A stretch of DNA of 64,000 nt, taken from Minisyncoccia bacterium (lineage in GTDB: Bacteria > Patescibacteriota > Minisyncoccia > UBA6257 > 2-01-FULL-56-20). The position numbers were made by a program, and so were the translations under genes. Position 1 is the first letter of the stretch. Each line of letters begins with the position of its first letter. Location of the stretch: positions 66,755-130,754 of the forward strand of contig JBEKRC010000002.1 in NCBI GenBank assembly GCA_049997875.1, given 5' to 3'. Shown here one piece after another: positions 2,528 to 45,761 of this stretch. A model generated the notes under the pieces. The model was not told where the DNA came from, searched no databases, and saw only the letters and a program-made list of their open reading frames with translations.

Positions 2528-2653
2528 ACAACAGTTTTTCTGCGGATTTTCTGTTTTTGATGGTAAATGATGGTAAAATGATGGGGAATGACTCCCGCGA
2601 GAAACGATGACAAAACGAGGAGCGTGTTTGATGTGCATACGGAGAAAGCCCGC

Positions 2654-5600: not shown

Positions 5601-7294
5601 GGTCGGGAGGGCGGAACACTAGCGCCGCGGGAATTGCGGGAGTGGTCTATGGCGGAGGCGGAGGCGGCGGGTATGGAACGACGGGAGGCAGCGCGGGAGG
5701 AAACGGTATAATCGTCATCACCTATCTCCCGCGCTATATCATCCTTGGTACTACTACCCAGCCATCGAACATTACGATAGGGCCGGGCGCGGCGGCGACG
5801 ACGAGCAATGCATTTACCTTTGCGACCGACGACGGCACAAGCACCATAACCAGCGTGAACGTCGGCCTTTCTACGACGACGGGCATTTTTCAAGTTCAGA
5901 TTACGAATAGTTCGGGGACCACGGTATACGGCTCAAGCACGAATCCCGGGTCTACTTCTTTGACCGTCACGACGACCGCCATGGGCGTTTCCACGACCGC
6001 CACCACGTTCCGCACGCTCATTCAGCCCTTGAGTTATCCGAATATGCCGGCACCGCCCGGTGGAACCTACGTGGTCACCTCCACCATTACGGGCTGGACG
6101 GACGTTAATACGCTGGATCAGACCAGTACGCCGATCACATCAAACACCCTTACGATAGACAATCAGCAGCCGGCGAACGTGACGAATGCGTCCGGCACGG
6201 CGACCAGCTCGCAAGTGACGTTTAGTTGGACAAATTCAACAAGCTCCGATTTCGCGACGACGACCGTTCTGCGGGCAACATCTTCCGTTGCCGTCGCGCC
6301 GACCAACGGGACAACCACCTACGTCAGCGAGGCCATCAATGCGACGACCACCGTCGCCTGCGTCGTCGCCTCAAGCACCGCGGGTTGCACGGATACGAGT
6401 CTCTCCACCACCACATATTATTATTACGAAATTTTTGCGGCAAATACCTATGCGAACTATTCTACGGGAGTCGTGCCGGCGGGGAATCCATTCCTACCGA
6501 GCGGGAATCGACCGCCGACCGTTTCAAAAGTCGTTCTCAACGGAAATGCGGCGATTGTTTTAAATCCTGGTGGCACGCAGACGGTTACGGCAGTCGCGTC
6601 GACAACCGACCCGGACGGAGCGGGTGATATCCGGTATGCCACATCAACCATTTATCTGTCGAGTGTTGGATCAAATTGCACGGCCAACAACCTGAACTGC
6701 TACCAGGTCCCGAGTTCGAGTTGCAGCTTCAGCAATTCCACGAGCACCGTGAGCTGTTCGGCAAACATCTATTACTTCGCGGACGCCACGGATGCGTCTT
6801 CAAGCTTCAATGGTCAGACGTGGAATGCCGCTATCACCGTTACTGACAGCGCGAGCAACACAAACACTTCCTCAACCGCAAGCGGGGTAACGCTGCAAAC
6901 GCTGCTCGCGATGAGCGTCGCGCCGACCAGCATCACTTACGGGACCTTGGCGCCGGCAGGGACGAGCGCGACGAACCTCACGACCACGGTTCAGAACGCA
7001 GGCAACTGCTCAACCACGCTCCAGTTGTCCGTGCTCGCGTCCCTTATGGGCGGCCATCCGACGACCACGCTTGTGACGAGTTCCCAGCAGTACGCGACGT
7101 CATCGGGCTTTACCTACGGCACGGGCTATGCCTTGAGCAGCACACCGGTCACGTTGAACGGCTTCACCCTTGCGGCGCCCGTCTCAACGACATCCGTGTC
7201 GGGTAATATTTTTTGGGGGCTGCGAGTTCCGACGGGTACTCCTACCGGTACCTACCTGGGCACAACTACCTTTTCTGCCCTTTATCATCTGTAA
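2654..7294 (+). CDS. Giant cell-surface protein (about 1547 aa): N-terminal signal-anchor, Thr/Pro-rich linkers, Gly-rich block, Thr/Ser-rich beta-rich C-terminal domains
   Basis: Start ATG 2654 (RBS GGAGAAAG); TM WWSLVILLVLIGGIFWSI; PTPPPAPTPPPPPSEP linkers; Gly-rich 5100-5720 (GAGGGGTAGTNSNRGGAGGGGGAYAE...YGGGGGGGYGTTGGSAGGNG); C-terminal 300 aa paralogous to next gene. Confidence 0.8.
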   Translation: MSRHSLKEIIYGRNVLNLRPGFGKRHPWWSLVILLVLIGGIFWSIRKLSTRAEVSDFFPLTCLGSWQNPANAQGKPESLDASSTAITADNASVYDPISPLSQIFCGAFVPPDYKTEGDMKGVGLTLVWNIPGFTTATATAAEEGTATSTATGTVPTAPTTTTPTTTAPEATSTSWLFNAQLLNVAFADTTDTVSTVPASSDTDIAPPTPPPAPTPPPPPSEPTTTEATASTTPSGTVIMAPPVTATLTATGSDVTAPPAASAATSSVPVFAPPPPPDDNFLKVSYSLDGQTWIDLATVNQDNWQNFTATLPVTSWDDLKKLQVRIEGIPTALTQIPKVYLDGMFVEVHYEIPPASPISLGGSTAATPSAATTSEVIVLPPTQQPVPVNQNSDFKANESPTFDFNLNALPGPTSTTEPAPAPAAPEVAPTSSPPATTTPSSTSLSRPPSPLSFFFRAADFFRTVGKAAAHAIGLDRWFTAYAQLSPNQSQLPDANNPIIAQIFGPDGKLTNLQPVILVTGGNLRVILPNQGRAFMPGGYLMKLLIWQNGVAYQTQSDFSWGVLAVNFNKSIYKKGDTAKIGLGFLNPTGHTICDGNIAMDISSPSGKIYHFSTGNKTILRGPHCAMQSFTNDPDYSATLIAAETGTYNVAIAAQDPSTGDAMKASDSFEAQTDPQFDVERAEATRIYPPMTYRATIKIIPNADYAGPVTETVPSGFTVTTDVPTDMTTSGDDQTITWQVVFKKGIESDFGYSFKAPDASPELYKLGPLTIGSWQESRQWQIAADAIAKTKVFIISTASTTWKVPNDWDNASNTIEAIGAGGGGTAGTNSNRGGAGGGGGAYAEIINKTLTIGASTTIQVGLGATAASGTDTFFGSSTCATSFVCAKGGQATTTKTSYGLGGASSTSVGSTTYPGGNGGPGNSSYGSYGGGGGGAGGKSGAGSAGLGTATSTGGNADLNNVTGGAINTAGNTGTEWDSTHGSGSGSGGRNTSAAGIAGVVYGGGGGGGYGTTGGSAGGNGIIVITYLPRYIILGTTTQPSNITIGPGAAATTSNAFTFATDDGTSTITSVNVGLSTTTGIFQVQITNSSGTTVYGSSTNPGSTSLTVTTTAMGVSTTATTFRTLIQPLSYPNMPAPPGGTYVVTSTITGWTDVNTLDQTSTPITSNTLTIDNQQPANVTNASGTATSSQVTFSWTNSTSSDFATTTVLRATSSVAVAPTNGTTTYVSEAINATTTVACVVASSTAGCTDTSLSTTTYYYYEIFAANTYANYSTGVVPAGNPFLPSGNRPPTVSKVVLNGNAAIVLNPGGTQTVTAVASTTDPDGAGDIRYATSTIYLSSVGSNCTANNLNCYQVPSSSCSFSNSTSTVSCSANIYYFADATDASSSFNGQTWNAAITVTDSASNTNTSSTASGVTLQTLLAMSVAPTSITYGTLAPAGTSATNLTTTVQNAGNCSTTLQLSVLASLMGGHPTTTLVTSSQQYATSSGFTYGTGYALSSTPVTLNGFTLAAPVSTTSVSGNIFWGLRVPTGTPTGTYLGTTTFSALYHL
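7064..7162. repeat. 99-bp segment nearly identical (1 mismatch) to 8061-8159, shared by the two tandem paralogs
   Basis: accacgcttgtgacgagttcccagcagtacgcgacgtcatcgggctttacctacggcacgggctatgccttgagcagcac[a/g]ccggtcacgttgaacggc. Confidence 0.85.
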
Positions 7295-7346
7295 TAGTTA
7301 TCCACAGGTAAGAAACATCCATTTTGCTATAATAATACTAAGCTGG

Positions 7347-8291
7347 ATGGATAAAAAGCTTATACAGATTTTGGTCGTTACTGCCCTTGCCACAGCCGCT
7401 TTTTTGTTGGTCGCCCAAACCGTTTTCGGTACTGCGACGACTACCAGTGTTACGAGTAGTGCGACCGTGACGACCACGGCGCCCATTGTTTCCTTCGTTT
7501 CAGGCCCGAATGGAGGTACGGCTATCAGCCTTAACGCCAATACGACAACGCCGATCTCCGTCGCCGTCACGGTCACCGATTATAACGGCTGCACGGATTT
7601 TAATAACAGCACCGAGACCATAGCGTTGTTCCGCGGCGATATCGCATCCTCGTCGTGCCTCACGAGCAGCACGCCGAACCCGCTCTTTTGCTATGTGGCC
7701 AGCGCATTTTCAACATCGACTTGCCCCGGCGGCTTTACCGCAAACGCCACCACAACGTTCTCCATGTACTATTTCGCCTCGCCGACCGACAACGCCTCCT
7801 ATACCTATAATGGAAAGGGTTGGCAAGGGGCTATAACAGTCACAAATCCCGCCAAACTCAGCGTCAGCACCACCTCTGCGACGACTACGCTGAACAGTCT
7901 TGAGGCGATCAGCTCAACGCCAAGCTCCATAGCCTATGGAACGCTCGCGCCGGCACAAGTCAACAGTCCTTCCGTAACCACGACGATTTCAGACGTCGGC
8001 AACACTTCAACGACGTTCCAGTTTTCGGCTACGCAATCTCTCACGGGCGGCGTGCCGACAACCACGCTTGTGACGAGTTCCCAGCAGTACGCGACGTCAT
8101 CGGGCTTTACCTACGGCACGGGCTATGCCTTGAGCAGCACGCCGGTCACGTTGAACGGCGTGTCAATCGCCGCTCCCATAAGTACCACTACGGTTTCCAC
8201 CAATATATTTTGGCTGTTGCAGGTCCCTACCGGAACGCCGACGGGAACATACAACGGCACCAACCTTTTCACGGGCCAATCGGTAAACTAG
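7347..8291 (+). CDS. Secreted Thr/Ser-rich surface protein, paralog of the C-terminal region of the giant protein
   Basis: Start MDKKLIQILVVTALATAAFLLVA (signal peptide) at ATG 7347; C-terminus TTTLVTSSQQYATSSGFTYGTGYALSSTPVTLNG... matches the giant protein C-terminus. Confidence 0.75.
   Translation: MDKKLIQILVVTALATAAFLLVAQTVFGTATTTSVTSSATVTTTAPIVSFVSGPNGGTAISLNANTTTPISVAVTVTDYNGCTDFNNSTETIALFRGDIASSSCLTSSTPNPLFCYVASAFSTSTCPGGFTANATTTFSMYYFASPTDNASYTYNGKGWQGAITVTNPAKLSVSTTSATTTLNSLEAISSTPSSIAYGTLAPAQVNSPSVTTTISDVGNTSTTFQFSATQSLTGGVPTTTLVTSSQQYATSSGFTYGTGYALSSTPVTLNGVSIAAPISTTTVSTNIFWLLQVPTGTPTGTYNGTNLFTGQSVN
8061..8159. repeat. Second copy of the 99-bp inter-paralog identical segment
   Basis: See 7064-7162. 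Confidence 0.85.
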
Positions 8292-8357
8292 GGACTTAGC
8301 GGTTTTTTTCTCTCGCTCGGCCATTCCTCCGAACGTCTTTCGTTTTGCGCGCAGGGG

Positions 8358-9320
8358 ATGAATATGCTACCATATACCCATAACGGTATGAAGCATTCTT
8401 TCCGAAAGTTTAGCCGTTTGTTTTTCATTGCCTTCGCATTCGCCGCAATATTGTTGCTGGGAAGCGCAGAAAGGAGCCTTGCGGCGTTCGGCATTTCGCC
8501 TCCCTTCATCAACGCTGACCACCTTGTGCCCGGCGTCACCTATTCGCAGACGGTCTACCTCGTGCAAGATCAGCCCGATCAAAATCTTGAAATCAGAGCG
8601 GCGTTAAGCGTGCCCGACCACATCAAGCCATGGATAAGTTTCGATACGGGAAATGATTTTATCATACCGCAGGGCACGCGCCAGTTCCCGGTACAGATCA
8701 CCATCACGGTACCGAAGGGGGAATCGCTCGGAAAGTACACGGGGAACGTGAGTTTCCAAAGCGTTCCAGGAAAAACGGGGCAAGTGACGATAGCCCTTGG
8801 GGTGAACGTATCCCTCAGCCTTACGGTTGGCAACGATATTTATGAAAAATATTCCGTCCCCCTGATCGCATTTCCGGATATTGAGGAAGGATGGAATCCG
8901 AAGGTGGCGGTGCGTTTTGAGAATGATGGCAACATACCCGAATCGTTTGACGCTGCGACGTTCGATCTTTACGATGAGTATGATGCTGTCCGCCTTGCGT
9001 TTGCGGAAAAGCAAAGCGGATTTCCAATAACACCGCCGTTCGTGACGAGCAATTACGTCATTGAATTCCCTACAAGCTTTCATTTGGGAGTAGGCGATTA
9101 CTGGGCAGTGGTGAATTTTTATAAAGATAACCAGGCGGTCGCCAGCCAGAAAACCGTGTTCCATGTCCTCCCTGCGGGATCGCTTTCGCCCACTGGATTG
9201 CTCCTCTCTTCTTTAAAAACCTACTGGTACTACTACCTCGTCGGCCTCATTGTACTTTTGCTCATCGGACGTCGGTTGTGGATATTCCGGCTGCGTAAAA
9301 AAAGAGCGGTGGTTGAGTAA
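8358..9320 (+). CDS. Secreted protein with N-terminal signal peptide and C-terminal TM anchor plus basic tail (Ig-like/beta-sandwich surface protein)
   Basis: FFIAFAFAAILLLGSAERSLAAFGISPP signal; C-terminus YWYYYLVGLIVLLLIGRRLWIFRLRKKR. Confidence 0.6.
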   Translation: MNMLPYTHNGMKHSFRKFSRLFFIAFAFAAILLLGSAERSLAAFGISPPFINADHLVPGVTYSQTVYLVQDQPDQNLEIRAALSVPDHIKPWISFDTGNDFIIPQGTRQFPVQITITVPKGESLGKYTGNVSFQSVPGKTGQVTIALGVNVSLSLTVGNDIYEKYSVPLIAFPDIEEGWNPKVAVRFENDGNIPESFDAATFDLYDEYDAVRLAFAEKQSGFPITPPFVTSNYVIEFPTSFHLGVGDYWAVVNFYKDNQAVASQKTVFHVLPAGSLSPTGLLLSSLKTYWYYYLVGLIVLLLIGRRLWIFRLRKKRAVVE

Positions 9321-9338
9321 TGCCATACCATCGCGATC

Positions 9339-10532
9339 ATGACGCCGCGCCGCGACTATTATATCCTTGCGATCGTCGGCGTATGTTTCATAATCCTACC
9401 CGCATCTGCGGCCGTGCTCCCAACCTCGGTGTCCGTCGTGATAGTAGTGGTGCCCAATGCGCCTTCTGATCTCACCGCCGTTTCAACTGCCCCGACCCAA
9501 GTGGCGCTTACGTGGACCGATAACTCCGGTAATGAGGATGGATTTAGCGTTGAACGCAAAACGGGAGCGGGTGGAACCTATGCGCAAATCGGAATAACGG
9601 GGACTGGCATAGCGACCTATGCGGATAACTCCGTAACTCCGGCAACCACCTATTTTTACCGCACAAGGGCCTTTGCCGGATCCAATTATTCCCCCTATAG
9701 CAATGAGGCGAGCGTGACTACCGCCTACGGTGTCAGCGGTAGTGGCGGGGGGGGAGGAGGCGGCGGCGGCGGTGGAGGGGGAGGATATTATTCTCCTCCG
9801 CCGGTATTTCAGACGTCAGCGATTTTTCGGGGAATAGCATATCCATTGAGCAGCATTAAGCTTCTTGAAAATGGACAGACGGTTGCCGTGACGCAATCGG
9901 GGCCTGACGCAAAGTTTGAAATTGACCTCTCAAACATCACTCCGGGAACCTACAATTTCGGTGTCTTGGCAAAGGATCCGCAAGGCGGCCACTCGATCGT
10001 TCAGACGTTCTCTGTCACCCTTACGTACGGCGCGTCGACCATCGTGAGCGGCATTTTTTTCCCACCTACCATCAGCGCGGATAAAGTACAGGTGAAGCGC
10101 GGCGACGTGCTTACGCTTCTGGGTTATACCGCGCCTACAGCGACTGTCGCCGTCGTTATTCATTCTGCGAATGAGATTATGAAAAACGTCACTTCCGCCG
10201 ACAGTGGGGCGTGGGTATACGCCGTGAATACCGATCCATTGGATTACGGCAATCACACGGCGCACGCTTGGGCGGCGGCGGGCGGCGCCGTGACCCCGGA
10301 CTCGGACATTCTTGCGTTTACGGTAGGCGATACTAATATTGCCGCGCCGCCGACGCAAACTTGCGCGTTCGTGGGGGATTTGAACGGGGATTGCAAGGTC
10401 AACCTCATTGATTTTTCGATTATGGCGTATTGGTATGGCAGGCCGAATCCGCCGGCAGGCGTTGACTTGAACCACGACGGGACCATCACTCTCGTTGACT
10501 TCAGTATTCTCATGTATTATTGGACCGGCTAA
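9339..10532 (+). CDS. Secreted FN3-domain protein with poly-Gly linker and C-terminal dockerin module
   Basis: FN3: PSDLTAVSTAPTQVALTWTDNSGNEDGFSVERK...TTYFYRTRAF; dockerin duplicated Ca-binding segments GDLNGDCKVNLIDFSIMAYWYG and VDLNHDGTITLVDFSILMYYW at the C-terminus. Confidence 0.8.
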   Translation: MTPRRDYYILAIVGVCFIILPASAAVLPTSVSVVIVVVPNAPSDLTAVSTAPTQVALTWTDNSGNEDGFSVERKTGAGGTYAQIGITGTGIATYADNSVTPATTYFYRTRAFAGSNYSPYSNEASVTTAYGVSGSGGGGGGGGGGGGGGYYSPPPVFQTSAIFRGIAYPLSSIKLLENGQTVAVTQSGPDAKFEIDLSNITPGTYNFGVLAKDPQGGHSIVQTFSVTLTYGASTIVSGIFFPPTISADKVQVKRGDVLTLLGYTAPTATVAVVIHSANEIMKNVTSADSGAWVYAVNTDPLDYGNHTAHAWAAAGGAVTPDSDILAFTVGDTNIAAPPTQTCAFVGDLNGDCKVNLIDFSIMAYWYGRPNPPAGVDLNHDGTITLVDFSILMYYWTG

Positions 10533-10533
10533 T

Positions 10534-11433
10534 ATGAAGCGATCTCTTTTCATCCTCGGATTCGTCGGTATGCTTTTTCTCCCTTGGCGGTCGTTTGCTT
10601 CGGTTATGACCGTGCGGCCATCTCCGGGGAATCCCTTGGCGATCATGGTCCACCTTAATACGGAAGGGGAAAATGTGAATGCCTTGGAAGCCCATTTCAC
10701 ATTTGATACCAATGCCTTTTCGGTGAGCAGCATAAGCGATGGCGGCTCCATCGTGAACCTTTGGGTAGAGACGCCAATCTTCTCAAACACTTCTGGTACC
10801 GTAGACTTTGCCGGCATCATTCCGGGAGGGGAAAGCACGGCGGACGGGACCATTATTACCATCATGATTGTTCCCAAAGAAGCCAACGCGACTACGAGCT
10901 TCACGCTCGTTTCGGCGCAGGCCCTTTTGAATGACGGACAAGGGACGCGGGCGTTGCTTTCCGTCATTAGTAATCCGTTCCCGCTGCTTACAGGAACCGC
11001 CGTATCGTCAACCATCGATACGCAAGCGCCGGACCCGTTCACGCCGGAGATCGGCCAAGAGCAAAATATTTTCAACGGGCAATATTTTTTGGCGTTCTCT
11101 ACGACCGATCAACGGTCGGGCATCGATCATTATGAAGTTCTTGAAATGCAAGCGGGCATGAAGATCGGGGCATCGTCCTCCTGGCAGGTTGCCGCTTCGC
11201 CGTACCTTTTGAAGGATCAGACGCTCTCAAGCGATATCTATGTTCGCGCCGTTGATAGGGCCGGAAATTTTCGAATAGCTGAAGTCCCGGCTGAGCATCC
11301 GGAATTGAAGGCCCGGGTCGCGCGGGGCGGCGCCGAAACACTCTTTGGGTCCATAGTGTTATTATTAGTCATAGGAATCATATTTTGGATTTGGAAATGG
11401 AGAAGAAAAAAACTATCGCGAGATTCCGGATAA
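10534..11433 (+). CDS. Cohesin-domain protein with Ig-like domain and C-terminal TM anchor (scaffoldin-like anchor protein 1)
   Basis: Signal peptide MKRSLFILGFVGMLFLPWRSFA; cohesin-like segment VMTVRPSPGNPLAIMVHLNTEGENVNALEAHFTFDTNAFSVSSISDGGSIVNLW...DGTIITIMIVPKEANATTSFTLVSAQALLNDGQGT; SGIDHYE...RAVDRAGNF Ig-like motif; C-terminal TM IVLLLVIGIIFWIWKWRRKK. Confidence 0.75.
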   Translation: MKRSLFILGFVGMLFLPWRSFASVMTVRPSPGNPLAIMVHLNTEGENVNALEAHFTFDTNAFSVSSISDGGSIVNLWVETPIFSNTSGTVDFAGIIPGGESTADGTIITIMIVPKEANATTSFTLVSAQALLNDGQGTRALLSVISNPFPLLTGTAVSSTIDTQAPDPFTPEIGQEQNIFNGQYFLAFSTTDQRSGIDHYEVLEMQAGMKIGASSSWQVAASPYLLKDQTLSSDIYVRAVDRAGNFRIAEVPAEHPELKARVARGGAETLFGSIVLLLVIGIIFWIWKWRRKKLSRDSG

Positions 11434-12839
11434 TCGTGAGCGCGCTTGCGGCGCTTGCAGGGCTTTTTGGCGCCCGAAACGCACATGCCGCAACGCTTTT
11501 CTTTTCGCCGCAATCGGGAACATATTTTACGGGACGCAGTTTTACCGTTGCCGTCAAGGTTTCCTCGCCCGACCAGGCGATGAGTGCCGCGCAAGGTGAA
11601 ATTTCCTTTCCGACAAAAAATCTTGCGGTACTTTCGGTATCAAAGACAGATTCCATTATGAATCTTTGGGTCCAGGACCCTACGTTCTCAAATCATGACG
11701 GCGTAATTAATTTCGGAGGCGTGGCGGTGAACCCCGGTTTCAAGGGAACCGATGGGACGATCTTCACGGTGACTTTTGAGGCGGAAAGTCCTGGTAGCGC
11801 CCCGTTATCATTTATCTCGGGGTCAGTTCTTGCGAACGACGGGAAAGGAACCAATATTTTGAGCGGCATGCAGAGCGCAAATTTCAGCGTCATTCCTCTT
11901 GCCGCCATGCCCGCGAATGCTTCAGCGCCGGCCGTTCTCATCATCTCCAATCCGCCCCTTGCCGACGGGAATTGGTATAACCTTGATCACATTACGTTCG
12001 ACTGGAGCGTTCCCTCGAATGCCGAAGGGGTCGATTATACGATATCGACCAATGCCAACTTCCAACTTCCCGATGTAAATCTGGGTTTTGTTTCACAGGT
12101 GACCTATGATCTCTCGAATTTTTCAGATGGTACGTGGTATTTCTTTGTAAGTTTCAAAAGCGGCAATTCCTGGTCGCCGCCAGCCGTGAAAATAATCATG
12201 CTTGACCGGACGCCGCCTCGCCCGTTCGTCATTACGCGCGAGGATACGGACGAAACGGACGCGCAGCCCGTTTTCCAATGGGTAGCGGCCGACGACGTGT
12301 CTGGCATTGATCATTATGAAGCTAGGATCGGCAATGGCGATTGGTTCAACCCCGCCAGCCTCGAAAGCACTGCCGCTTCTTACGTTTTGCCGCCGCAGTC
12401 GCCGACCGACGTGCGGACGTTCACCGTCCGCGCGTTTGATAGGGCAGGGAATTTCACTGACTCCTCAATTGACTTCCGCGTGTTTCCTCCGGCCGTGCTT
12501 TGTAAGGGTGATGGTCTCTCATGCAGGCTTTTGGCGCTCGCCGTGCGATGGGAATGGCTGATCATTCTCATCTTTATTCTTCTTGTTTTCGGCACGTATG
12601 GATTTATTTATCGTCTCCTGCGGTGGAGGAAGCAATCAAGGAAAGAGTTACAAGAATTCAAAGATGAATTGCAGCGCGATCTGAAGCGGGTAGAAGAAAA
12701 GGCCCGAGAGGCCGGCGGCGGCGAGACCGATCTCAGGCAATCCCATCTTCTGGAAGAGAAGCGTTCGCTCGAAAGGCAAATTCGCCACATTGTGGAGGAC
12801 GTGAAGGAAGAACTCAAGCGCCTTACGGACAAAAAATGA
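11397..12839 (+). CDS. Cohesin-domain protein 2 with two Ig-like domains, TM helix and cytoplasmic coiled-coil tail (scaffoldin-like anchor protein 2)
   Basis: Signal peptide; cohesin-like ATLFFSPQSGTYFTGRSFTVAVKVSSPDQAMSAAQGEISFPTKNLAVLSVSKTDSIMNLWV...DGTIFTVTFEAESPGSAPLSFISGSVLANDGKGT; SGIDHYEARI...RAFDRAGNF; TM WLIILIFILLVFGTYGFIY then KQSRKELQEFKDELQRDLKRVEEK. Confidence 0.75.
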   Translation: MEKKKTIARFRIIVSALAALAGLFGARNAHAATLFFSPQSGTYFTGRSFTVAVKVSSPDQAMSAAQGEISFPTKNLAVLSVSKTDSIMNLWVQDPTFSNHDGVINFGGVAVNPGFKGTDGTIFTVTFEAESPGSAPLSFISGSVLANDGKGTNILSGMQSANFSVIPLAAMPANASAPAVLIISNPPLADGNWYNLDHITFDWSVPSNAEGVDYTISTNANFQLPDVNLGFVSQVTYDLSNFSDGTWYFFVSFKSGNSWSPPAVKIIMLDRTPPRPFVITREDTDETDAQPVFQWVAADDVSGIDHYEARIGNGDWFNPASLESTAASYVLPPQSPTDVRTFTVRAFDRAGNFTDSSIDFRVFPPAVLCKGDGLSCRLLALAVRWEWLIILIFILLVFGTYGFIYRLLRWRKQSRKELQEFKDELQRDLKRVEEKAREAGGGETDLRQSHLLEEKRSLERQIRHIVEDVKEELKRLTDKK

Positions 12840-39327: not shown

Positions 39328-40281
39328 ATGGAGAAAAGAACGTTCTGGTATGCGACGTTTCTCGCGCTTTTGACGATGGTTGTCTCCGGCACGAACAATT
39401 TCCTTACGAAGATCGCCGTAACGGCCGTAAAGGATCCGGTTCTCTACACGACGCTCAAGAACAGCATCGTGGCAGTTTTTCTCTTCGGCCTTGTCGTTCT
39501 TTTCAAGAAATGGCCGGAGATACGGGGTGCTTCAAAAAAACAACTCCTCCAACTCACGGCCATTGGGATCGTGGGCGGTTCAGTACCGTTTGCGCTCTAT
39601 TTCAGCGGCCTTGCGCAGACGACTGCCGTCAACGCCTCGCTCATTCATGCAACGCTTCTCATATGGGTGTTCCTTTTTGCGATCCCCATGTTCAAAGAAC
39701 GCATGGGGTGCGTCCAGTGGCTCGGGGTCGGGGCAATCTTCGCCGCAAATCTTTTTGTCGGGGGCTTTACCGGATTCAAATACAATACCGGTGAGTTGAT
39801 GATCCTCATTGCAACGGTGTTGTGGGGAGCTGAAAATATCATCGCCAAAAGTGCCCTGCGCGGCTTTTCAAGCACGACCGTGGTAGCGGCAAGAATGGTC
39901 CTCGGCTCGTTCATTCTCCTTTTGATCTCGCTTCCCCGCGGCGGCGCGACCGTCGTCCTCACGCTCAACGCAGCGCAGTGGGGCTGGACGCTGCTCACGA
40001 GTGCGCTCCTTTTGGGCTATGTGCTTTCGTGGTACGCCGCGCTCAAATATGCCCCAGCGACTTACGTTGCGACGCTGCTCGTCCCTGCACCGCTCATCAC
40101 CAATGCCTTGTCCGCCGTGTTCGTCACGCACTCCTTGCAATGGACGGATGCCGCAAGTTCGCTCCTCTACGCCGTGGGGGTCGTTTTGGTAATTGTTTTT
40201 TCGGACAAGATCGCGAAAGAGATATTGCCGCGGAAAGCACTTGCTTCCCAAACCGCCTCTTTCAGCGGGAAAAAACCATGA
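39328..40281 (+). CDS. EamA/DMT-family transporter
   Basis: 10 TM helices, duplicated EamA-like halves. Confidence 0.75.
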   Translation: MEKRTFWYATFLALLTMVVSGTNNFLTKIAVTAVKDPVLYTTLKNSIVAVFLFGLVVLFKKWPEIRGASKKQLLQLTAIGIVGGSVPFALYFSGLAQTTAVNASLIHATLLIWVFLFAIPMFKERMGCVQWLGVGAIFAANLFVGGFTGFKYNTGELMILIATVLWGAENIIAKSALRGFSSTTVVAARMVLGSFILLLISLPRGGATVVLTLNAAQWGWTLLTSALLLGYVLSWYAALKYAPATYVATLLVPAPLITNALSAVFVTHSLQWTDAASSLLYAVGVVLVIVFSDKIAKEILPRKALASQTASFSGKKP

Positions 40282-41009
40282 ACGGTATTCTACGTTGCAG
40301 CCGCTATGCGTTTGGGCCGAACCGTCTTCATTATTGCGGACCCGATGCGAATAGCGAGATCCGTTCCTATATTGACGAGGACGCAACCGACCCCGGACTT
40401 GAAAAGTTAATGAGCCAGTTCCAGACGATGTTCCCCTATCTCCGCCATATCGCGGAGGCGAACGGCATAAGAGATCCCTTTGACAATCGCGTGGTGGAGG
40501 CCTATTGGATCGGCAATGAACTTTTGGAAAATATCGGCCAGCGGAAATTCTACCGCCATCTTATTGAGGACCAAAAGATCAAAAAACGGATTGGCGCAAA
40601 ATCCTTCGCGTCGGTGGAGGCCAAGATCGGACAGGGAGCGGTGCCGCACCACTCGTTCCATGTTTTGGCCATTTGGCGGCGGACCGGCCATCTTGATCGC
40701 GAACATACGCTGGAAAGTATGGACGAGTGTCGCGTGAGCTGGGGTGCGGTGAAAAGCGTAAGCGGTTCTTCCATCATCGTACTTACCGAGCCGCTCCTTT
40801 ATGCGGAAGGGAAATTGTTTCTCGGTAAACCGATAGAGAAGAAGCTCGCGCGGCAGCTGGAAGCGGAGTACGACATTGAACAGATAAGACCGGGCGACAT
40901 CGTCTCTATCCATTGGGGCGTCCCCTGTGAAGTCATCACTGCGCATCAGGCGGCGATGCTCAGCAAATACACACTGCGCGACATTGCCCTGGCAAACCAG
41001 ACGATCTAG
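40278..41009 (+). CDS. Hypothetical protein translationally coupled to hydrogenase maturation protease
   Basis: ATGA overlap with upstream stop; stop TAG immediately followed by protease ATG at 41010; no family recognised. Confidence 0.5.
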   Translation: MNGILRCSRYAFGPNRLHYCGPDANSEIRSYIDEDATDPGLEKLMSQFQTMFPYLRHIAEANGIRDPFDNRVVEAYWIGNELLENIGQRKFYRHLIEDQKIKKRIGAKSFASVEAKIGQGAVPHHSFHVLAIWRRTGHLDREHTLESMDECRVSWGAVKSVSGSSIIVLTEPLLYAEGKLFLGKPIEKKLARQLEAEYDIEQIRPGDIVSIHWGVPCEVITAHQAAMLSKYTLRDIALANQTI

Positions 41010-41387
41010 ATGCCTCTCGCCTCCGCGGTCGTCTACGTTTTTGGCAATCCTGACCTCCCGGCAGACTCCCTGCCGCTCCGCATCCTTCCGGAACTCCGTA
41101 GGCGGTTTCCGGAAGCACGGTTTGAGGTGAAAGACCCGAACGAAGAATGGGACATGCCGGAGTATCTTGTTGTCATTGATACCGTGGAAGGCGTTGCGGG
41201 GGTCACCGTTTTTGACGATCTCGCGAAGTTCGCCGCCGCGCCGCGCGTGACGACCCATGATTTTGACGCGCTTGCGAATCTCCGCTATCTTCAAAAACTC
41301 GGCAAGCTCAAGAAAATAAAAATCATCGGGATACCGCCGACGATCACCGAAATGCAAGCGCTCCAAGCCGTGAGTGCTCTCCTTTAG
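41010..41387 (+). CDS. Hydrogenase maturation protease (HycI/FrhD-like)
   Basis: VVYVFGNPDLPADSLPLRILPEL...EYLVVIDTVEG pattern of [NiFe] large-subunit C-terminal endopeptidases. Confidence 0.75.
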   Translation: MPLASAVVYVFGNPDLPADSLPLRILPELRRRFPEARFEVKDPNEEWDMPEYLVVIDTVEGVAGVTVFDDLAKFAAAPRVTTHDFDALANLRYLQKLGKLKKIKIIGIPPTITEMQALQAVSALL

Positions 41388-41421
41388 AGGGCTGGTCCGC
41401 CGGAGGCGGCGTTACGTTCCC

Positions 41422-42717
41422 CTACGCGCTATCCCAATCCACCTTCAAAAAGTGCGCCGCGCAGCTCATGCATGGGTCGTAGGCGCGGATAAGTTTTTCT
41501 ATTTCAAGCTCAATTTTCTCTTTCGGCGTGTCGGGCAGAAGTCCCTGCACGAGCGTCGCGATATCGCGTTCAATATTTACCTGGTTCTGTCCCGTGGGCA
41601 CAACCACCTCGCCCTCCTTCACCAATCCGTCAGCGCCCACGGATATCTTATGATACAGCGTGCCCCGCGGCGCTTCCACGACGCCTACGCCCGTTGCTTC
41701 GCGGTTCGGCGCCTTTACGACGGGCTCCGGAACGAATTTGCTGGTGCGCAAAATATCCATTGATTCGTCAATAGAGTGCAGGATCTCCACCGCCTGCGCG
41801 AGGTTGTTGTAGAAGATGTCCGTGGACGGGAAAAGCGTGAGAAGTTCGCCAAGCGATTCCCTTGTCTTCGGATGCAATTTATCCTTCGCGAGGTTAAGCC
41901 GCGCCAAGGCGCCCACCATGTAGCCCTCGTTGCCATAGACGTAGGCAGACGCTTGCGAATACGGGAGAACGACGTGCTCAAGGTGCGTGCGAAACTCCGC
42001 TTTTTGATAATGTTCTCCCCTGCTCGTCATGATCGTCCCGTTCAGGTAGCCATAGTTGCCGTTGGGCACAAGCGCCATGAACTGCGTTTTCCGGTCAAAA
42101 TGGAACGGTGCATTCCTGAAAATATCTATGAGCCGGAGCGCTGCGGGGCGGACGGATTCCAATTTTTTGATCGCCTCCGCGATCCCCTGCGCGTCCGGAA
42201 ATTTGAGAAACCCGCCGATCGTAGGATACATCGCATGGACGCTTCTCCCGGCCACGAGCGTCGCCAAAAAGTTGCCGGCGGCCTTCATGTCAAAGCCGTC
42301 GTGCAATAATTGATGCTCCGCCTCCACGTTTTCGTCAAAATCCAAAAATGCGTCTTTTCCATAAATGTCCGGCAACGAGAAAAGATACAGATGGAGGGCG
42401 TGGTCGCGGATCATGAGGCCGTGCATCGTGAGCGCGCGGAGCGCCTTCGTTTGCGCCGTGGGTTCAATGCCCAACGCATCCTCGCATGCCTCAATGCTGC
42501 ACATGAGGTGCGCATTGGAGCAGGTGCCGCAGATCCTCGCCAGATGCTGCGGGATGGCCACGATTGCCTTCCCTTTCATCGCCTCGGTGAAGAAGCGCTT
42601 GTATTCCAGCGTTTTGAATTTCACGTCGGTCACCTTCCCCTCTTCCACGTGCAACGAAAGCCCGGCGTTGCCTTCTATCTTCGTGATGCCGTCCATCGTA
42701 AGGTCAAAAGTATGCAT
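41422..42717 (-). CDS. [NiFe]-hydrogenase large subunit (group 3/4-like)
   Basis: N-terminal RICGTCSNAH (RxCGxCxxxH) and C-terminal DPCMSCAAH (DPCxxCxxH) followed by short cleavable tail FLKVDWDSA. Confidence 0.9.
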   Translation of the reverse strand: MHTFDLTMDGITKIEGNAGLSLHVEEGKVTDVKFKTLEYKRFFTEAMKGKAIVAIPQHLARICGTCSNAHLMCSIEACEDALGIEPTAQTKALRALTMHGLMIRDHALHLYLFSLPDIYGKDAFLDFDENVEAEHQLLHDGFDMKAAGNFLATLVAGRSVHAMYPTIGGFLKFPDAQGIAEAIKKLESVRPAALRLIDIFRNAPFHFDRKTQFMALVPNGNYGYLNGTIMTSRGEHYQKAEFRTHLEHVVLPYSQASAYVYGNEGYMVGALARLNLAKDKLHPKTRESLGELLTLFPSTDIFYNNLAQAVEILHSIDESMDILRTSKFVPEPVVKAPNREATGVGVVEAPRGTLYHKISVGADGLVKEGEVVVPTGQNQVNIERDIATLVQGLLPDTPKEKIELEIEKLIRAYDPCMSCAAHFLKVDWDSA

Positions 42718-42729
42718 GGGATTATGAGA

Positions 42730-43215
42730 TCATTTTACGCCCAGTTCGGCTGCGACACTACCCAGTACTTTAAGGAAGTTTGCCGGATCCATCGGGCAGC
42801 CGGGCACCTCGGCATCAACCGTGACCACGTCGGCAACCTTGAGCACTTTGGGCAGCGCCCCGAACCGCGCAACCAAGAATTCAATCGCCTCCTTTTGCGC
42901 ATCGGTGAAAGCGTTGCGCTGACCCGCAGGCAGGCCTATGACGGCGCAGGCGCCCACCGCGACGAGCTTCTTTGAACGGCTGCGGATGTCCTTCAGTTTT
43001 TCTTCCTGCTCCGGCGAGGCGATCGCGCCCTCAATGAAAGAGATGTCAAACTCGTCCATGGAGTTTTTGGATTGCAGGACGCGCGCGTGCCGAAAATCAA
43101 ATTTCTTCTTCCAGTCGGCCCAGTGGTCGTTCATGATCTCCGTCATCACAATCGTATTGTCCTCGCAGCAGGAGAAAGAGAACCAGCCGATTTTCAACTT
43201 TTCCCCGTCCGTCAT
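42730..43215 (-). CDS. [NiFe]-hydrogenase small subunit, minimal NuoB-like (161 aa)
   Basis: WFSFSCCEDN, GACAVIGLPAG, VPGCPMDP Cys motifs; only proximal cluster ligands. Confidence 0.8.
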   Translation of the reverse strand: MTDGEKLKIGWFSFSCCEDNTIVMTEIMNDHWADWKKKFDFRHARVLQSKNSMDEFDISFIEGAIASPEQEEKLKDIRSRSKKLVAVGACAVIGLPAGQRNAFTDAQKEAIEFLVARFGALPKVLKVADVVTVDAEVPGCPMDPANFLKVLGSVAAELGVK

Positions 43216-43251
43216 GCCTTCATTGTATCATGAACGTGTTATAATTTTCGT

Positions 43252-44973
43252 ATGTCAGCACCTTCTCATGAGGACGTTTTCTCGGTTGGCATTGGCGGCG
43301 CGGCGGGCGAGGGAGTACGGGAGGCAGGGGCAAGCTTGGCGCAGCTTCTTACCGACCTTGGCTTTGAGGTTTTCGTCGGTTTTGATTATCCGTCGCTCAT
43401 CCGCGGCGGGCACAATTTCAGCCGCGTGAGCTTCTCCGGTGAAAAGGTACACTGCGATCATTCGCCGCTCACCATACTTATTGCGCTTGATGAGGAAACC
43501 TTGCGGATCCACAAAGACGAACTGAACAAAGACGCCGTCATTCTTGCCGACACGTTTGAAAAGGAATACGCGGAGCGCTTCGGCGCGAACGCCGTCACGT
43601 TGCCCATGAAGGAATTTGCCCAAAAGCTCGGCGCGCCGCCAATCACCCGCACCTCCGTCGCGCTTGGGGCCGCTTGCTATCTCCTCGGTGTCGCGCCGGA
43701 TGTCATGGCCGCGATCTTGAAAAAGATTTTTCAGGGAAGAAGTTTGGATGCCAATCTGGAACTTGCCACGGCCGGATACGAACACCTTGCGAAGCTTGGC
43801 TTCCGGCAGCAGGAAAGATTGGCGCCGCATGGCGCCGCAGGCGCAACGGAACTTCTTGACGGAAACACGGCGCTCGGCAGGGGCTTTGTGGCGGCGGGAA
43901 TGGATATTTATTTCAGCTACCCAATGACGCCTTCATCCAGCATTCTCCACTTTCTCGCCAAGCAGCAGAAGGAATACAAGATAAAAGTGATCCAGCCGGA
44001 GAACGAGCTTGCGGTGGTGCACATGGCGCTCGGTGCCGCGTATGCCGGCAAGCGCGCCGCCGTGGGCACCGCGACCGGCGGCTTCGCGCTGATGCAGGAG
44101 GCGTTCAGCTTGGCGGGCATGGCCGAACTGCCGATCGCTTTTGTCGTTTCACAACGCTACGCTCCCGCAACCGGCGGCCCCACGTACACGAGCCAGGGCG
44201 ATCTCACGTTCATACTTCACTCGGGTCATGGCGAGTTTCCACGGATCGTGCTCGCGCCCGGCGATCCGCAAGAAGCCTTCGCCTGCGGCGCGGATGCGCT
44301 CAACCTCGCATGGAAATATCAAGTGCCGACTATCGTCGTTCTTGACCGTGAGCTTTCGGAAAGCTTGGAGACCGTTCCCGCGCTTGATCCCCAATCAATC
44401 AAAATTGAACGGGGCAAAATTCTGGAAAAGCCGTCGGAGAATTACGGCCGATATCAAATCACCGATGACGGCGTTTCACCGATGGTCTTCCCTGGCGCAC
44501 CGGGTGCGGTCGTAAAAGCGAGCAGTTATGAACATGGCGAGGGGGGCATGACAACCGAGGAGGCCGGAGCGATCAAAAAGATGAATGACAAGCGCTTTGC
44601 GAAGGCGCAAGGAATCGCGAACGAATTGAAAAGCCATGAGGCCGCCAAAGTGTACGGCGACAAGGATAGCTCCAATGTGATCGTGTTCTGGGGCTCCACG
44701 AAGGGTGCTGTGCTTGAGGCGGCGAAATATCTTACAGAGCCGGCGAAGCTTTTGCAGATCGTTTGGATGGACCCATTTGACGCCGAGAAGGTCGCGGTGG
44801 AACTCGCCGGCGCAAAAACGATCGTTGACGTAGAAGCCAATCGCACGGCGCAGCTCGCCTCGCTTATCCGCGAAAAGACCGGCCTCACGATAGACAAAAA
44901 GATTTTGCGGTATGACGCGCGGCCATTTGATCCGCTGGAATTGACAGAAAAAATAAACGCACTACTCACATAA
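43252..44973 (+). CDS. 2-oxoacid:ferredoxin oxidoreductase alpha subunit with fused gamma domain
   Basis: N-terminal GIGGAAGEG gamma-like domain, then POR/KOR alpha domains; 573 aa. Confidence 0.9.
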   Translation: MSAPSHEDVFSVGIGGAAGEGVREAGASLAQLLTDLGFEVFVGFDYPSLIRGGHNFSRVSFSGEKVHCDHSPLTILIALDEETLRIHKDELNKDAVILADTFEKEYAERFGANAVTLPMKEFAQKLGAPPITRTSVALGAACYLLGVAPDVMAAILKKIFQGRSLDANLELATAGYEHLAKLGFRQQERLAPHGAAGATELLDGNTALGRGFVAAGMDIYFSYPMTPSSSILHFLAKQQKEYKIKVIQPENELAVVHMALGAAYAGKRAAVGTATGGFALMQEAFSLAGMAELPIAFVVSQRYAPATGGPTYTSQGDLTFILHSGHGEFPRIVLAPGDPQEAFACGADALNLAWKYQVPTIVVLDRELSESLETVPALDPQSIKIERGKILEKPSENYGRYQITDDGVSPMVFPGAPGAVVKASSYEHGEGGMTTEEAGAIKKMNDKRFAKAQGIANELKSHEAAKVYGDKDSSNVIVFWGSTKGAVLEAAKYLTEPAKLLQIVWMDPFDAEKVAVELAGAKTIVDVEANRTAQLASLIREKTGLTIDKKILRYDARPFDPLELTEKINALLT

Positions 44974-45761
44974 TGGAATTTGCCACAAAAGCAAAAATCA
45001 CTTGGTGCCCGGGATGCCCGAACGCGGCGATCCTCGTCGCCTTCCGGCAGGCGGTGACCGAACTCGTAAACGATGGCAAACTGAAGCCGGAGAATCTGGT
45101 CGCGGCCTCAGGGATCGGCTGCCATGGCAAGATCACCGACTATCTAAATACGAACACGTTCACGTCGCTTCACGGCCGTGTGATCGCGAGCATGGAAGGA
45201 ATAAAGGTTGCGAACCCCGCGCTCACGATCGTGGGGTTCAGCGGTGACGGCGATTCGTATTCGGAGGGCGTGGAGCATCTTGTGCATGCGGCACGCAGGA
45301 ACTCCGACATCAACCTTTTCATTCACGACAATCAGGTGTTTGCTTTGACGACCGGCCAGGCGACGCCCACGACGCCCGTCGGCTTCAAGGGGAAATCCAC
45401 GCCCTACGGCAGCATTGAATTGCCATTCAATCCTCTCCTCTTCATGCTTGCCTCGGGCGCCACGTTCGTCGCGCGCTCATATGCACTGGATATCCCGAAG
45501 ACCAAAGAGATCATGAAGGCCGCGATCGCGCACAAAGGGTTTTCCTTCGTAGATATCATTCAGCCGTGCATTACGTTCTATGACACGCGCGACTACTACA
45601 AGGAGCGCCTGTATTGGATTGATGAGAATGCGCCGAAGAATAATCTCTCTGACGCGATGGAGGCAGTGCGGGTCGCAGGCGGCAGGAGCAGTGGCGCGGG
45701 CAGCGACAAGGTTCCGCTTGGCATTTTCTACCGCGTGGAGCAGCCGACATTTGAGGAATAA
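44973..45761 (+). CDS. 2-oxoacid:ferredoxin oxidoreductase beta (TPP-binding) subunit
   Basis: TWCPGCPNAAIL...GIGCHGK...GDGDSYSEG. Confidence 0.9.
   Translation: MEFATKAKITWCPGCPNAAILVAFRQAVTELVNDGKLKPENLVAASGIGCHGKITDYLNTNTFTSLHGRVIASMEGIKVANPALTIVGFSGDGDSYSEGVEHLVHAARRNSDINLFIHDNQVFALTTGQATPTTPVGFKGKSTPYGSIELPFNPLLFMLASGATFVARSYALDIPKTKEIMKAAIAHKGFSFVDIIQPCITFYDTRDYYKERLYWIDENAPKNNLSDAMEAVRVAGGRSSGAGSDKVPLGIFYRVEQPTFEE

Follow-up and report, generated by a model that had tools for sequence, protein, structure and literature searches.

A hyd2-type [NiFe]-hydrogenase locus of a Minisyncoccia bacterium with a probable ferredoxin link and a DUF6390 protein that may handle or sense nickel

Two clades of [NiFe]-hydrogenases related to group 3b, hyd1 and hyd2, have been described as specific to bacteria of the candidate phyla radiation (CPR) (Jaffe et al. 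2020, BMC Biol 18:69, PMC7304191). In the large-subunit tree, hyd2 sits on a long branch inside or beside group 3b, the small subunits are consistently truncated (mean 164 aa, versus 250 aa), and no beta or gamma subunit is encoded in proximity (PMC7304191). Some hyd2 contexts include a family of PF07992 flavoproteins and one of Fe-S proteins, and a family with some members resembling HypC is common to hyd1 and hyd2 (PMC7304191). The function of hyd2 "remains uncertain" according to these authors (PMC7304191), and other CPR papers label such enzymes plainly as group 3b. Here we describe the [NiFe]-hydrogenase locus in a 64,000-nucleotide stretch of contig JBEKRC010000002.1 from a Minisyncoccia bacterium (hereafter the window). 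The locus encodes a large subunit (HydL) and a truncated small subunit (HydS), together with an EamA-family permease, a DUF6390 protein and a maturation endopeptidase.

The window hydrogenase belongs to the already published hyd2 type, of which it is a further member. It is of Patescibacteria origin, its small subunit has 161 aa, beta and gamma are missing, a PF07992 flavoprotein, an Fe-S protein and a member of a HypC-related family that hyd1 has too are encoded, and nothing contradicts the membership. We consider, with a probability of about 0.6, that the enzyme is a soluble heterodimer derived from group 3b. It would be coupled to a ferredoxin (Fd) hub shared with a 2-oxoacid:ferredoxin oxidoreductase (OFOR) and a ferredoxin-NAD(P)+ reductase (FdR), and be matured by the protease and the EamA-DUF6390 pair. 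The operon statistics of Fd-FdR, the link between the HydL tail and the protease, and the tandem-Cys proximal site of HydS are added here to what is given in PMC7304191. The domain make-up of DUF6390 and its contexts across phyla are also added. The coordinates of all features are collected in Table 1.

An alignment of DUF6390 was used to search GTDB, with each species represented by a single genome, and the 80 best loci were retrieved. The set of related loci used below (L numbers) comprises 85 loci of about 20 kb each, in which genes were labelled by tblastn and by labelling of open reading frames (ORFs). The labelled loci were split into class A (hyd2 type; n = 49, non-redundant) and class B (hyd1, four-subunit; n = 15). 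The hyd2 type is widespread, with hundreds of HydL homologues at ≥70% identity and DUF6390 matches in at least 593 of the GTDB species genomes. The class A layout is that of the window: EamA, DUF6390 and protease genes converge on those of HydL and HydS. In the window, the EamA stop codon and the DUF6390 ATG overlap by 4 bp, the protease ORF begins at the base right after the DUF6390 stop, and this plus-strand unit meets the minus-strand HydS-HydL pair. The class B order is beta, gamma, HypC, EamA, DUF6390, delta, alpha and a truncated HypA-like gene. Such synteny across dozens of related loci shows that the arrangement is not due to chance. The ORF map and the family scans recovered every element that the first-pass annotation had placed at 40278–45761, with the same coordinates and identities.

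HydL carries the L1 motif RICGTCSNAH at residue 61 and the L2 motif DPCMSCAAH at residue 414, followed by a 9-aa C-terminal tail (FLKVDWDSA). The complete Ni-Fe ligands and the tail that had been read from the sequence earlier are both present. Its best NCBIfam models were ShyA (246 bits) and HydA (219 bits), for which the equivalog cutoffs of 700 and 880 lie far above. The best PDB match was 5yxy_A (E 3.5e-61), and P. furiosus SHI matched at about 1e-57. Matches to 5yxy_A and 9nez_D scored 198–211 bits, versus 151 for group 3c, 114 for 3d and 107 for 3a. The closest characterised large subunits are those of the Pyrococcus and Thermococcus group 3b sulfhydrogenases SHI and SHII (5yxy, 9nez, 9e15), which are cytosolic and have the same L1 and L2 motifs. 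However, these enzymes are alpha-beta-gamma-delta tetramers with an NADPH-binding beta/gamma diaphorase and a three-cluster delta subunit of 240–261 aa, whereas the window enzyme has two subunits and one cluster.

HydL has thousands of database relatives, and the best 120 are 70–100% identical and labelled Patescibacteria, Paceibacterota, Minisyncoccia or Vogelbacteria. It shares 51–89% identity with the large subunits of loci with hyd2 gene order and 29–36% with hyd1 alpha subunits. The locus had been set apart from groups 3b, 3c, 3d and 4 by its lack of adjacent diaphorase or membrane subunits. Going by similarity, HydL falls into group 3b, within a long-branch clade restricted to CPR, and the subunit make-up of group 3b is missing.

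Two other classes were considered for the enzyme. A membrane-bound group 4 enzyme was ruled out, since no membrane subunits were present and HydL is far closer to group 3. Regulatory (sensor) hydrogenases keep three-cluster small subunits and typically have neither a cleavable tail nor a protease. This class was also ruled out, because the window has a one-cluster small subunit, a tail and a protease.

The alignment of HydS with the 240–261-aa delta subunits of group 3b (ShyD/HydD) spans their N-terminal ~150 residues. HydS has four conserved cysteines (C16, C17, C90 and C140), with a tandem Cys-Cys in place of CxxC. The hyd1 delta subunits have 242–280 aa and 12–17 cysteines, including the CxxC pair and 8 further conserved cysteines for two more clusters. 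The related hyd2 small subunits have a median length of 168 aa by a crude ORF call. HydS is predicted to keep the proximal [4Fe-4S] site only, with C16, C17, C90 and C140 as ligands. The tandem Cys-Cys ligand pattern is that of cluster N2 in NuoB/Nqo6. The size, the four cysteines and the tandem ligands agree with the earlier description of a NuoB-like subunit with a proximal cluster only, but by hidden Markov model (HMM) HydS is nearer to group 3 small subunits (2e-12) than to NuoB (4e-4). The group 3d HoxY (5xf9_C, 189 aa), the Acetomicrobium HydS (7t2r_E, 179 aa) and NuoB with its group 4 counterparts are likewise cut to the proximal-cluster domain. All of these are permanent parts of larger complexes whose other subunits provide the next Fe-S cluster, whereas no such partner is encoded near HydS in the window.

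The absence of adjacent diaphorase or membrane subunits, reported before for the immediate surroundings, extends further. A tblastn search with CPR hyd1 beta and gamma subunits gave no match in the window, and Pfam scans of about 45 window ORFs revealed no membrane hydrogenase subunits. In the window, in about 19 kb of its flanks and in the 49 related hyd2 loci, no such subunit was seen. Beta was present in 15/15 and gamma in 14/15 hyd1 loci, and both were present in 0/49 hyd2 loci.

Among gene pairs, Fd-FdR shows the most specific link to hyd2. FdR was found in 24 of the 49 hyd2 loci and in none of the 15 hyd1 loci (Fisher p = 4e-4), whereas NifU and NifS were not significantly enriched. The Fd has three cysteines (Cx2Ax2C...CP), is of the mono-cluster Fer4_13/15 type and is encoded immediately upstream of FdR; it had no NCBIfam match. 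The best NCBIfam match of FdR was PadH (217 bits), followed by the ferredoxin-NAD+ reductases HcaD and AndAa, all well under the equivalog cutoffs. In the window, 7.5 kb separates Fd-FdR from the hydrogenase. Three arrangements were found in the set, each beside hydrogenase genes. The order Fd-FdR-HydS-HydL on one strand occurs in L008, L030, L034, L035, L040, L047, L079 and others. The order Fd-FdR-EamA-DUF6390-protease occurs in L037, L039, L056 and L057. In L011, L015, L017, L020, L029, L031, L059 and the window, OFOR and an ADP-forming acetyl-CoA synthetase (ACD) are inserted between Fd-FdR and HydS.

Similar pairs are known from other systems. PadH of the phenylglyoxylate:NAD+ oxidoreductase PadEFGHI carries FAD and connects the OFOR-type core of that enzyme with NAD+ via a ferredoxin-like subunit. 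Dioxygenase and P450 systems have pairs of a ferredoxin and a ferredoxin-NAD+ reductase, and in the window, too, a small mono-cluster Fd gene directly precedes that of the reductase. Unlike these systems, the Fd-FdR of the window is genetically tied to a hydrogenase and not to an oxygenase or a Pad complex.

From this gene linkage we infer the following electron path. The heterodimer would have a standard Ni-Fe site in HydL and a single proximal [4Fe-4S] cluster in HydS. Since the domain of the medial and distal clusters and the beta/gamma subunits are missing, the proximal cluster would have to exchange electrons directly with a diffusible carrier. The best candidate for this carrier would be the 89-aa three-Cys Fd, acting as a hub. 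The Fd would be reduced by the two-subunit OFOR, whose acetyl-CoA would yield ATP through ACD, and it would be reoxidised by the hydrogenase with release of H2. The FAD-dependent FdR would connect the Fd to NAD(P)(H). Fd and FdR may therefore form a non-homologous, detachable stand-in that replaces the group 3b beta/gamma diaphorase. The first-pass annotation had proposed a stripped-down, directly ferredoxin-coupled, H2-evolving module. The ferredoxin coupling is plausible, and the Fd gene lies in or beside the hydrogenase operon of relatives. The proposal was too narrow, because FdR, overlooked at that stage, could replace the diaphorase.

Several points weigh against this scheme. About one third of the loci with enough flank have no Fd-FdR within ~7 kb of HydS (16/34 classed as "other"), and in the window Fd-FdR is not co-transcribed with the hydrogenase. 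The potential of a three-Cys, probably [3Fe-4S], Fd may be too positive for efficient H2 evolution, and the tandem-Cys proximal site of HydS is unusual for a group 3 enzyme. No Hyp genes that could build the Fe(CN)2CO centre were seen in the searched stretches, so activity is a prediction. Finally, Fd-FdR often adjoins NifS-NifU, also in the window, and could serve Fe-S assembly.

This last point can be turned into an explanation of its own, in which Fd-FdR belongs to NifS-NifU Fe-S assembly and feeds electrons into cluster synthesis, as Fdx does in the iron-sulfur cluster (ISC) system, and the hydrogenase has a different partner, for example another Fd or the single-cluster OFOR docked directly. 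The minus-strand order in the window is NifS, NifU, Nfu-like ORF, Fd, FdR. The NifS-NifU-Nfu-like order upstream of Fd-FdR recurs in L008, L030 and L031 (for the Nfu-like ORF, a PF01106 match was seen in L089), and NifSU-Fd-FdR adjacency is also found in L037, L039, L042 and L057. A direct OFOR partner is consistent with the divergent position of OFOR next to HydS in about 8 loci. However, as read from the gene strings, Fd-FdR immediately adjoins HydS or EamA-DUF6390 in about 10 loci (L010, L022, L034, L035, L040, L047, L056, L079 and others) where neither NifS nor NifU is close by. The enrichment in hyd2 loci also concerns FdR and not, to a significant degree, NifU or NifS. We regard this explanation as unlikely. 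A link of Fd-FdR to the hydrogenase remains the preferred reading, and it narrows the question of the hyd2 partner to a specific gene pair.

The two-subunit OFOR divergent from the hydrogenase was recovered as annotated, with both subunits above the curated subfamily thresholds. The ACD, ferredoxin and PEP (phosphoenolpyruvate) synthase genes that had been noted downstream of it are all present, and ACD follows OFOR in related loci too. OFOR adjoins the hydrogenase in only ~11/49 hyd2 loci, which indicates an add-on and not the core of the hydrogenase module.

The direction of H2 flux could also be the reverse, with a hydrogenase that mainly takes up H2 from the host or community and delivers reduced Fd and, via FdR, NAD(P)H. 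Group 3b enzymes are regarded as bidirectional (PMC7304191), FdR-Fd resembles NADH-ferredoxin systems and could run either way, and OFOR does not adjoin the hydrogenase in the majority of loci. The neighbourhood in the window is fermentative, with OFOR, ADP-forming ACD, PEP synthase and enolase, and CPR bacteria are generally described as fermenters (PMC7304191 and other CPR papers). These points argue against uptake as the main function, which we consider improbable.

The gene directly after DUF6390 encodes a minimal endopeptidase. Its HycI match was below threshold both in Pfam (20.9 bits, cutoff 23) and with TIGR00072 (20.4 bits, cutoff 47.45), and a profile of the family gave chance-level matches only against PDB sequences. 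HycI was matched at E < 0.1 by 12 of 20 family members, with a best value of 3.8e-5. In a Foldseek comparison of the AlphaFold model (pLDDT 83) with the PDB, the top nine matches were all HybD/HycI hydrogenase endopeptidases, with 1cfz_A at E 1.6e-5 and TMq 0.65, and 5ija, 2kml, 2e85, 5ttx and 2i8l among them. The residues D19, D57 and H83, within the motifs GN..D, IDT and HDFD, are identical across 32 homologues. Judged by their order and spacing in the sequence, which are as expected, they may correspond to the metal triad Glu16, Asp62 and His93 of E. coli HybD.

The protease gene occurs in 39 of the 49 hyd2 loci, against 0 of the 15 hyd1 loci. The hyd2 large subunits mostly have tails of 7–9 aa, and the hyd1 alpha subunit ends at the motif histidine in 13/13 cases. 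The protease co-occurs only with tailed large subunits. The tailless hyd1 enzymes without a protease serve as an internal control that supports its role. The model fold, the matches of the homologues and this co-occurrence bear out the earlier assignment of a matching endopeptidase. It is proposed that the HybD-fold enzyme would cut the 9-residue tail off HydL, and that the EamA-DUF6390 pair would also take part in maturation.

The genes for assembly of the Ni-Fe(CN)2CO site were searched in the window, in its 19-kb flank and in the ~20-kb loci, that is, in a small part of any genome. A six-frame scan for HypD, HypE, HypF and HypB motifs in the window and the 85 loci revealed no recognisable Hyp gene, only four isolated, chance-like matches (L012, L054 twice, L080). 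The genes called in the 19 kb of flank (9 kb + 10 kb) include SecDF, a sigma factor and pyrimidine genes, and none of them matched a Hyp family in Pfam. No stand-alone HypC was detected near main-type hyd2 loci with an HMM of CPR HypC. A literature search for CPR bacteria with hypD, hypE or hypF found nothing relevant.

These results would fit a hydrogenase that is inactive or repurposed as a sensor or scaffold in reduced genomes without HypCDEF. However, strict conservation holds for all four cysteines of the Ni-Fe site, for those of the proximal cluster, and for the tail with its dedicated protease, and sequence identity is 70–89% across hundreds of lineages. Such conservation indicates that a functional active site is under strong purifying selection. 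Given also the small part of each genome covered by the Hyp searches, loss of activity appears very improbable.

Some relatives carry Hyp-like genes. A divergent hyd2 subset (L060, L063, L069, L074, L085), with HydL 51–55% identical to that of the window, keeps a true HypC directly upstream of EamA-DUF6390. The same position of HypC is found in hyd1, and the gene has been lost there in the main hyd2 type, including the window. The hyd1 loci L066–L068, L070, L071, L075, L077, L081, L083 and L084 encode an 84-aa protein starting with MHD (e.g. L067:14447-14701). It matches the N-terminal half of HypA only (PF01155, E 1.3e-5) and has no zinc-finger half.

DUF6390 is the remaining component of the permease-protease unit. 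No relevant literature was found on DUF6390 (PF19927), it had no NCBIfam match, and its profile gave only chance-level matches against PDB sequences. The AlphaFold model (pLDDT 70) showed a helical N-domain, a low-confidence loop with an HHxFH motif, and a C-terminal beta-barrel with a helix (strands 154–220, helix 222–242). The best PDB fold match of the C-domain was HypC 2z1c_B (E 3.1e-3, probability 1.00, TM 0.68 on target length). HupF_HypC was the only non-self Pfam match of DUF6390, at a marginal E of 0.14. An HMM built from 18 CPR HypC sequences matched, after true HypC, ten DUF6390 ORFs (E 3e-4 to 0.7) and no other type of ORF. Hhalign aligned DUF6390 with HypC over the GDxVxxHW-helix segment at a likewise marginal probability of 52% (E 1.4e-4). 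C20, H125, C151 and H212 are invariant across very divergent members.

The C-domain shares the OB-type barrel and helix with HypC/HupF (PF01455; 2z1c), and the invariant Cys/His may correspond to HypC Cys2 and His51, of which hhalign aligns the His region only. Unlike HypC, DUF6390 has an uncharacterised N-domain of 150 residues with no known relative. Membership in the HypC family (PF01455) was rejected, because the invariant C151 is internal and not N-terminal as HypC requires. A fold check had been suggested for this 243-aa protein, and it gave a HypC-like C-domain in a protein that is not of the HypC family.

DUF6390 adjoins a hydrogenase in 65/85 loci. It is encoded directly after a true HypC in hyd1, in some hyd2 and in actinobacterial-type loci. 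EamA lies directly upstream in most CPR loci of the hyd1 as well as the hyd2 class (58/85 by tblastn; 15/15 hyd1 loci), and a Kerfeldbacteria protein (P0361) is an EamA-DUF6390 fusion. A profile search of 1.84 billion representatives returned 1317 clusters, among which DUF6390 was fused to DNA-binding domains of the MarR, PadR, XRE, GntR and ArsR types. The MarR-fusion cluster includes members annotated as Pseudonocardiales, and the other helix-turn-helix (HTH) fusions are on contigs without a taxon label.

Four fusion contexts were inspected. All are in [NiFe]-hydrogenase loci, and three of the four fusions lie directly beside transporter genes. L086 has the order small subunit, large subunit, HycI, NifU-Rieske, NHL and HypC, then DUF6390-MarR. 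In L091, PadR-DUF6390 is followed by an unannotated 394-aa gene, an SBP_bac_5/BPD_transp ATP-binding cassette (ABC) system (NikA family) and hydrogenase genes. In L092, an ABC importer follows GntR-DUF6390, and a gene for a hydrogenase small subunit is close by. L093 has hydrogenase genes, NicO and ArsR-DUF6390, the last followed by an MFS transporter; genes for HycI, HypA and a HypB-like protein lie in the vicinity.

DUF6390 thus resembles nickel-responsive one-component regulators, being a sensor-like domain fused to HTH domains beside nickel-type transporters. Promiscuous HTH fusion is typical of a ligand-sensing domain, and together with the transporter adjacency, the conserved Cys/His and the hydrogenase linkage it suggests nickel binding. 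From these contexts we infer a role in nickel handling or sensing. In the regulators, DUF6390 would sense the metal, and in CPR it would pass it on from the DMT permease to HydL. The 243-aa protein had first been taken for an accessory or maturation factor. Its synteny across phyla agrees with an accessory role, but the transporters and HTH fusions point at least equally to metal sensing or handling. DUF6390 would be a hydrogenase-linked domain for metal handling or metal sensing, apparently an undescribed one. In maturation, it would bind a metal, most likely nickel, via its invariant Cys/His, and its HypC-like domain would dock on HydL.

A wider proposal, which we advance tentatively and consider doubtful as a whole, is that DUF6390 would be an unrecognised hydrogenase-dedicated Ni-binding domain using C20, H125, C151 and H212. 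The HTH-fused forms on the inspected Pseudonocardiales-type and unassigned metagenome contigs would be Ni-responsive regulators of Ni import and hydrogenase genes. The CPR form, which stands alone, is translationally coupled to a DMT permease or is fused to one, would take Ni from the permease to HydL with the help of its HypC-like docking domain, replacing HypA/HypB and perhaps HypC. Together with Fd-FdR, this would make hyd2 the smallest known [NiFe]-hydrogenase system that is self-contained.

If the Fd coupling holds, a one-cluster heterodimer coupled directly to a small Fd would be the simplest soluble [NiFe]-hydrogenase architecture. It could be a useful engineering chassis and would inform on H2 exchange between CPR symbionts and their hosts. 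The DUF6390 lead is independent of the CPR question, since the family is found in [NiFe]-hydrogenase loci of each unrelated lineage sampled: CPR, Pseudonocardiales-type Actinobacteria and unassigned metagenome contigs. The transporter pairing and the five kinds of DNA-binding fusion make DUF6390 a testable candidate for a missing piece of nickel supply or regulation.

Further small genes were seen around DUF6390 and HydL in related loci. In some hyd2 loci, HydL is followed immediately, on its own strand, by an ORF of ~140–155 aa (L025:7780-8232(-), L029:11253-11687(-), L030:11149-11598(-), L031:11135-11581(-), L059:7810-8280(-) and L072:19802-20218(-)). The motifs of this ORF (RYAxxCAE, CFP, YWxHHxGxGDCAV and GDxVxxH..IE) give it the look of a miniature DUF6390/HypC; it has no Pfam match and is absent from the window. 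A small Cupin_2 protein is encoded downstream of HydL in L008:11115-11432(-), L035:9299-9667(-) and L001:19040-19444. Those of L008 and L035 have a His-rich C-terminal tail (e.g. ...DGDIPHDHHH), and such a protein could be a further nickel-binding accessory protein. In two metagenome-assembled genomes labelled Chloroflexi (L076:9741-10717 and L080:9423-10717), DUF6390 comes directly after HypC, and hydrogenase genes are absent within 10 kb. The HypC-DUF6390 pair may be able to sit apart from its hydrogenase, or else the contigs are mis-binned.

Table 1. Features of the hydrogenase locus and its neighbourhood (positions in the window)
Feature	Position	Strand	Evidence or remark
EamA/DMT-family permease	39328..40281	+	PF00892 E 2.1e-31; first gene of the EamA-DUF6390-protease operon
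DUF6390 protein, 243 aa	40278..41009	+	PF19927 E 2.5e-62, full-length
HybD/HycI-type maturation endopeptidase, minimal, 125 aa	41010..41387	+	HycI E 3.4e-4 (below cutoff) and AlphaFold fold
[NiFe]-hydrogenase large subunit HydL, 431 aa	41422..42717	-	PF00374 E 2.6e-28
Truncated small subunit HydS, 161 aa	42730..43215	-	PF01058 only
Divergent intergenic region, 36 bp	43216..43251	.	read from sequence
OFOR fused alpha-gamma subunit	43252..44973	+	TIGR03710 552.5 bits (cutoff 482.75); POR, POR_N domains
OFOR beta subunit	44973..45761	+	TIGR02177 286.7 bits (cutoff 261.9); TPP_enzyme_C, PFO_beta_C
ADP-forming acetyl-CoA synthetase (ACD), fused alpha/beta	47396..49519	+	CoA_binding_2, Succ_CoA_lig, ATP-grasp_5; TIGR02717 E 1.7e-135
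Ferredoxin-NAD(P)+ reductase (FdR)	50703..51992	-	Pyr_redox_2 and Reductase_C
Single-cluster ferredoxin (Fd), 89 aa	51995..52264	-	Fer4_13 E 3.7e-10; Fer4_15 E 1.5e-8
Fe-S assembly genes upstream of Fd-FdR (NifS, NifU, small Nfu-like ORF)	52295..54546	-	
NifU	52437..53210	-	NifU_N and Fer2_BFD
NifS	53245..54546	-	Aminotran_5
PEP synthase / pyruvate-water dikinase	56187..58664	-	PPDK_N, PEP-utilizers, PEP-utilizers_C

The start codons of HydS and OFOR-alpha are 36 bp apart on opposite strands, and a shared divergent promoter had been proposed for this region. The sequence TGTTATAAT (TGnTATAAT) ends 6 nt ahead of the OFOR ATG, and TGATACAAT (TGnTACAAT), on the other strand, ends 6 nt ahead of the HydS ATG. 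There is no room for normal Shine-Dalgarno spacing, so two extended -10 promoters placed back to back may give leaderless transcripts of HydS and OFOR. A sigma-70 consensus scan, which needs a -35 box, detected nothing in 43216–43251, and its sites were no more numerous than in shuffled controls. The proposed promoter region is consistent with the divergent geometry and the two extended -10-like motifs, but the consensus scan adds no other basis for it.

A 392-aa ORF with a signal-peptide-like N-terminus lies between OFOR and ACD at 45865–47043 (-). Its product is Gly/Trp/Tyr-rich and of low complexity, with no convincing Pfam match. An Mrr-type restriction endonuclease with an N-terminal membrane segment (PF04471, E 1.8e-28) is encoded at 49592–50446 (+), between ACD and FdR-Fd. 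This gene looks like an insertion, because ACD and FdR are directly convergent in relatives. At 2588–12839 (+), a glycine-rich giant protein of 1568 aa (PF21722 Gly_rich_2) is followed by proteins with weak fn3, dockerin and cohesin matches, and these may be cell-surface or attachment genes.

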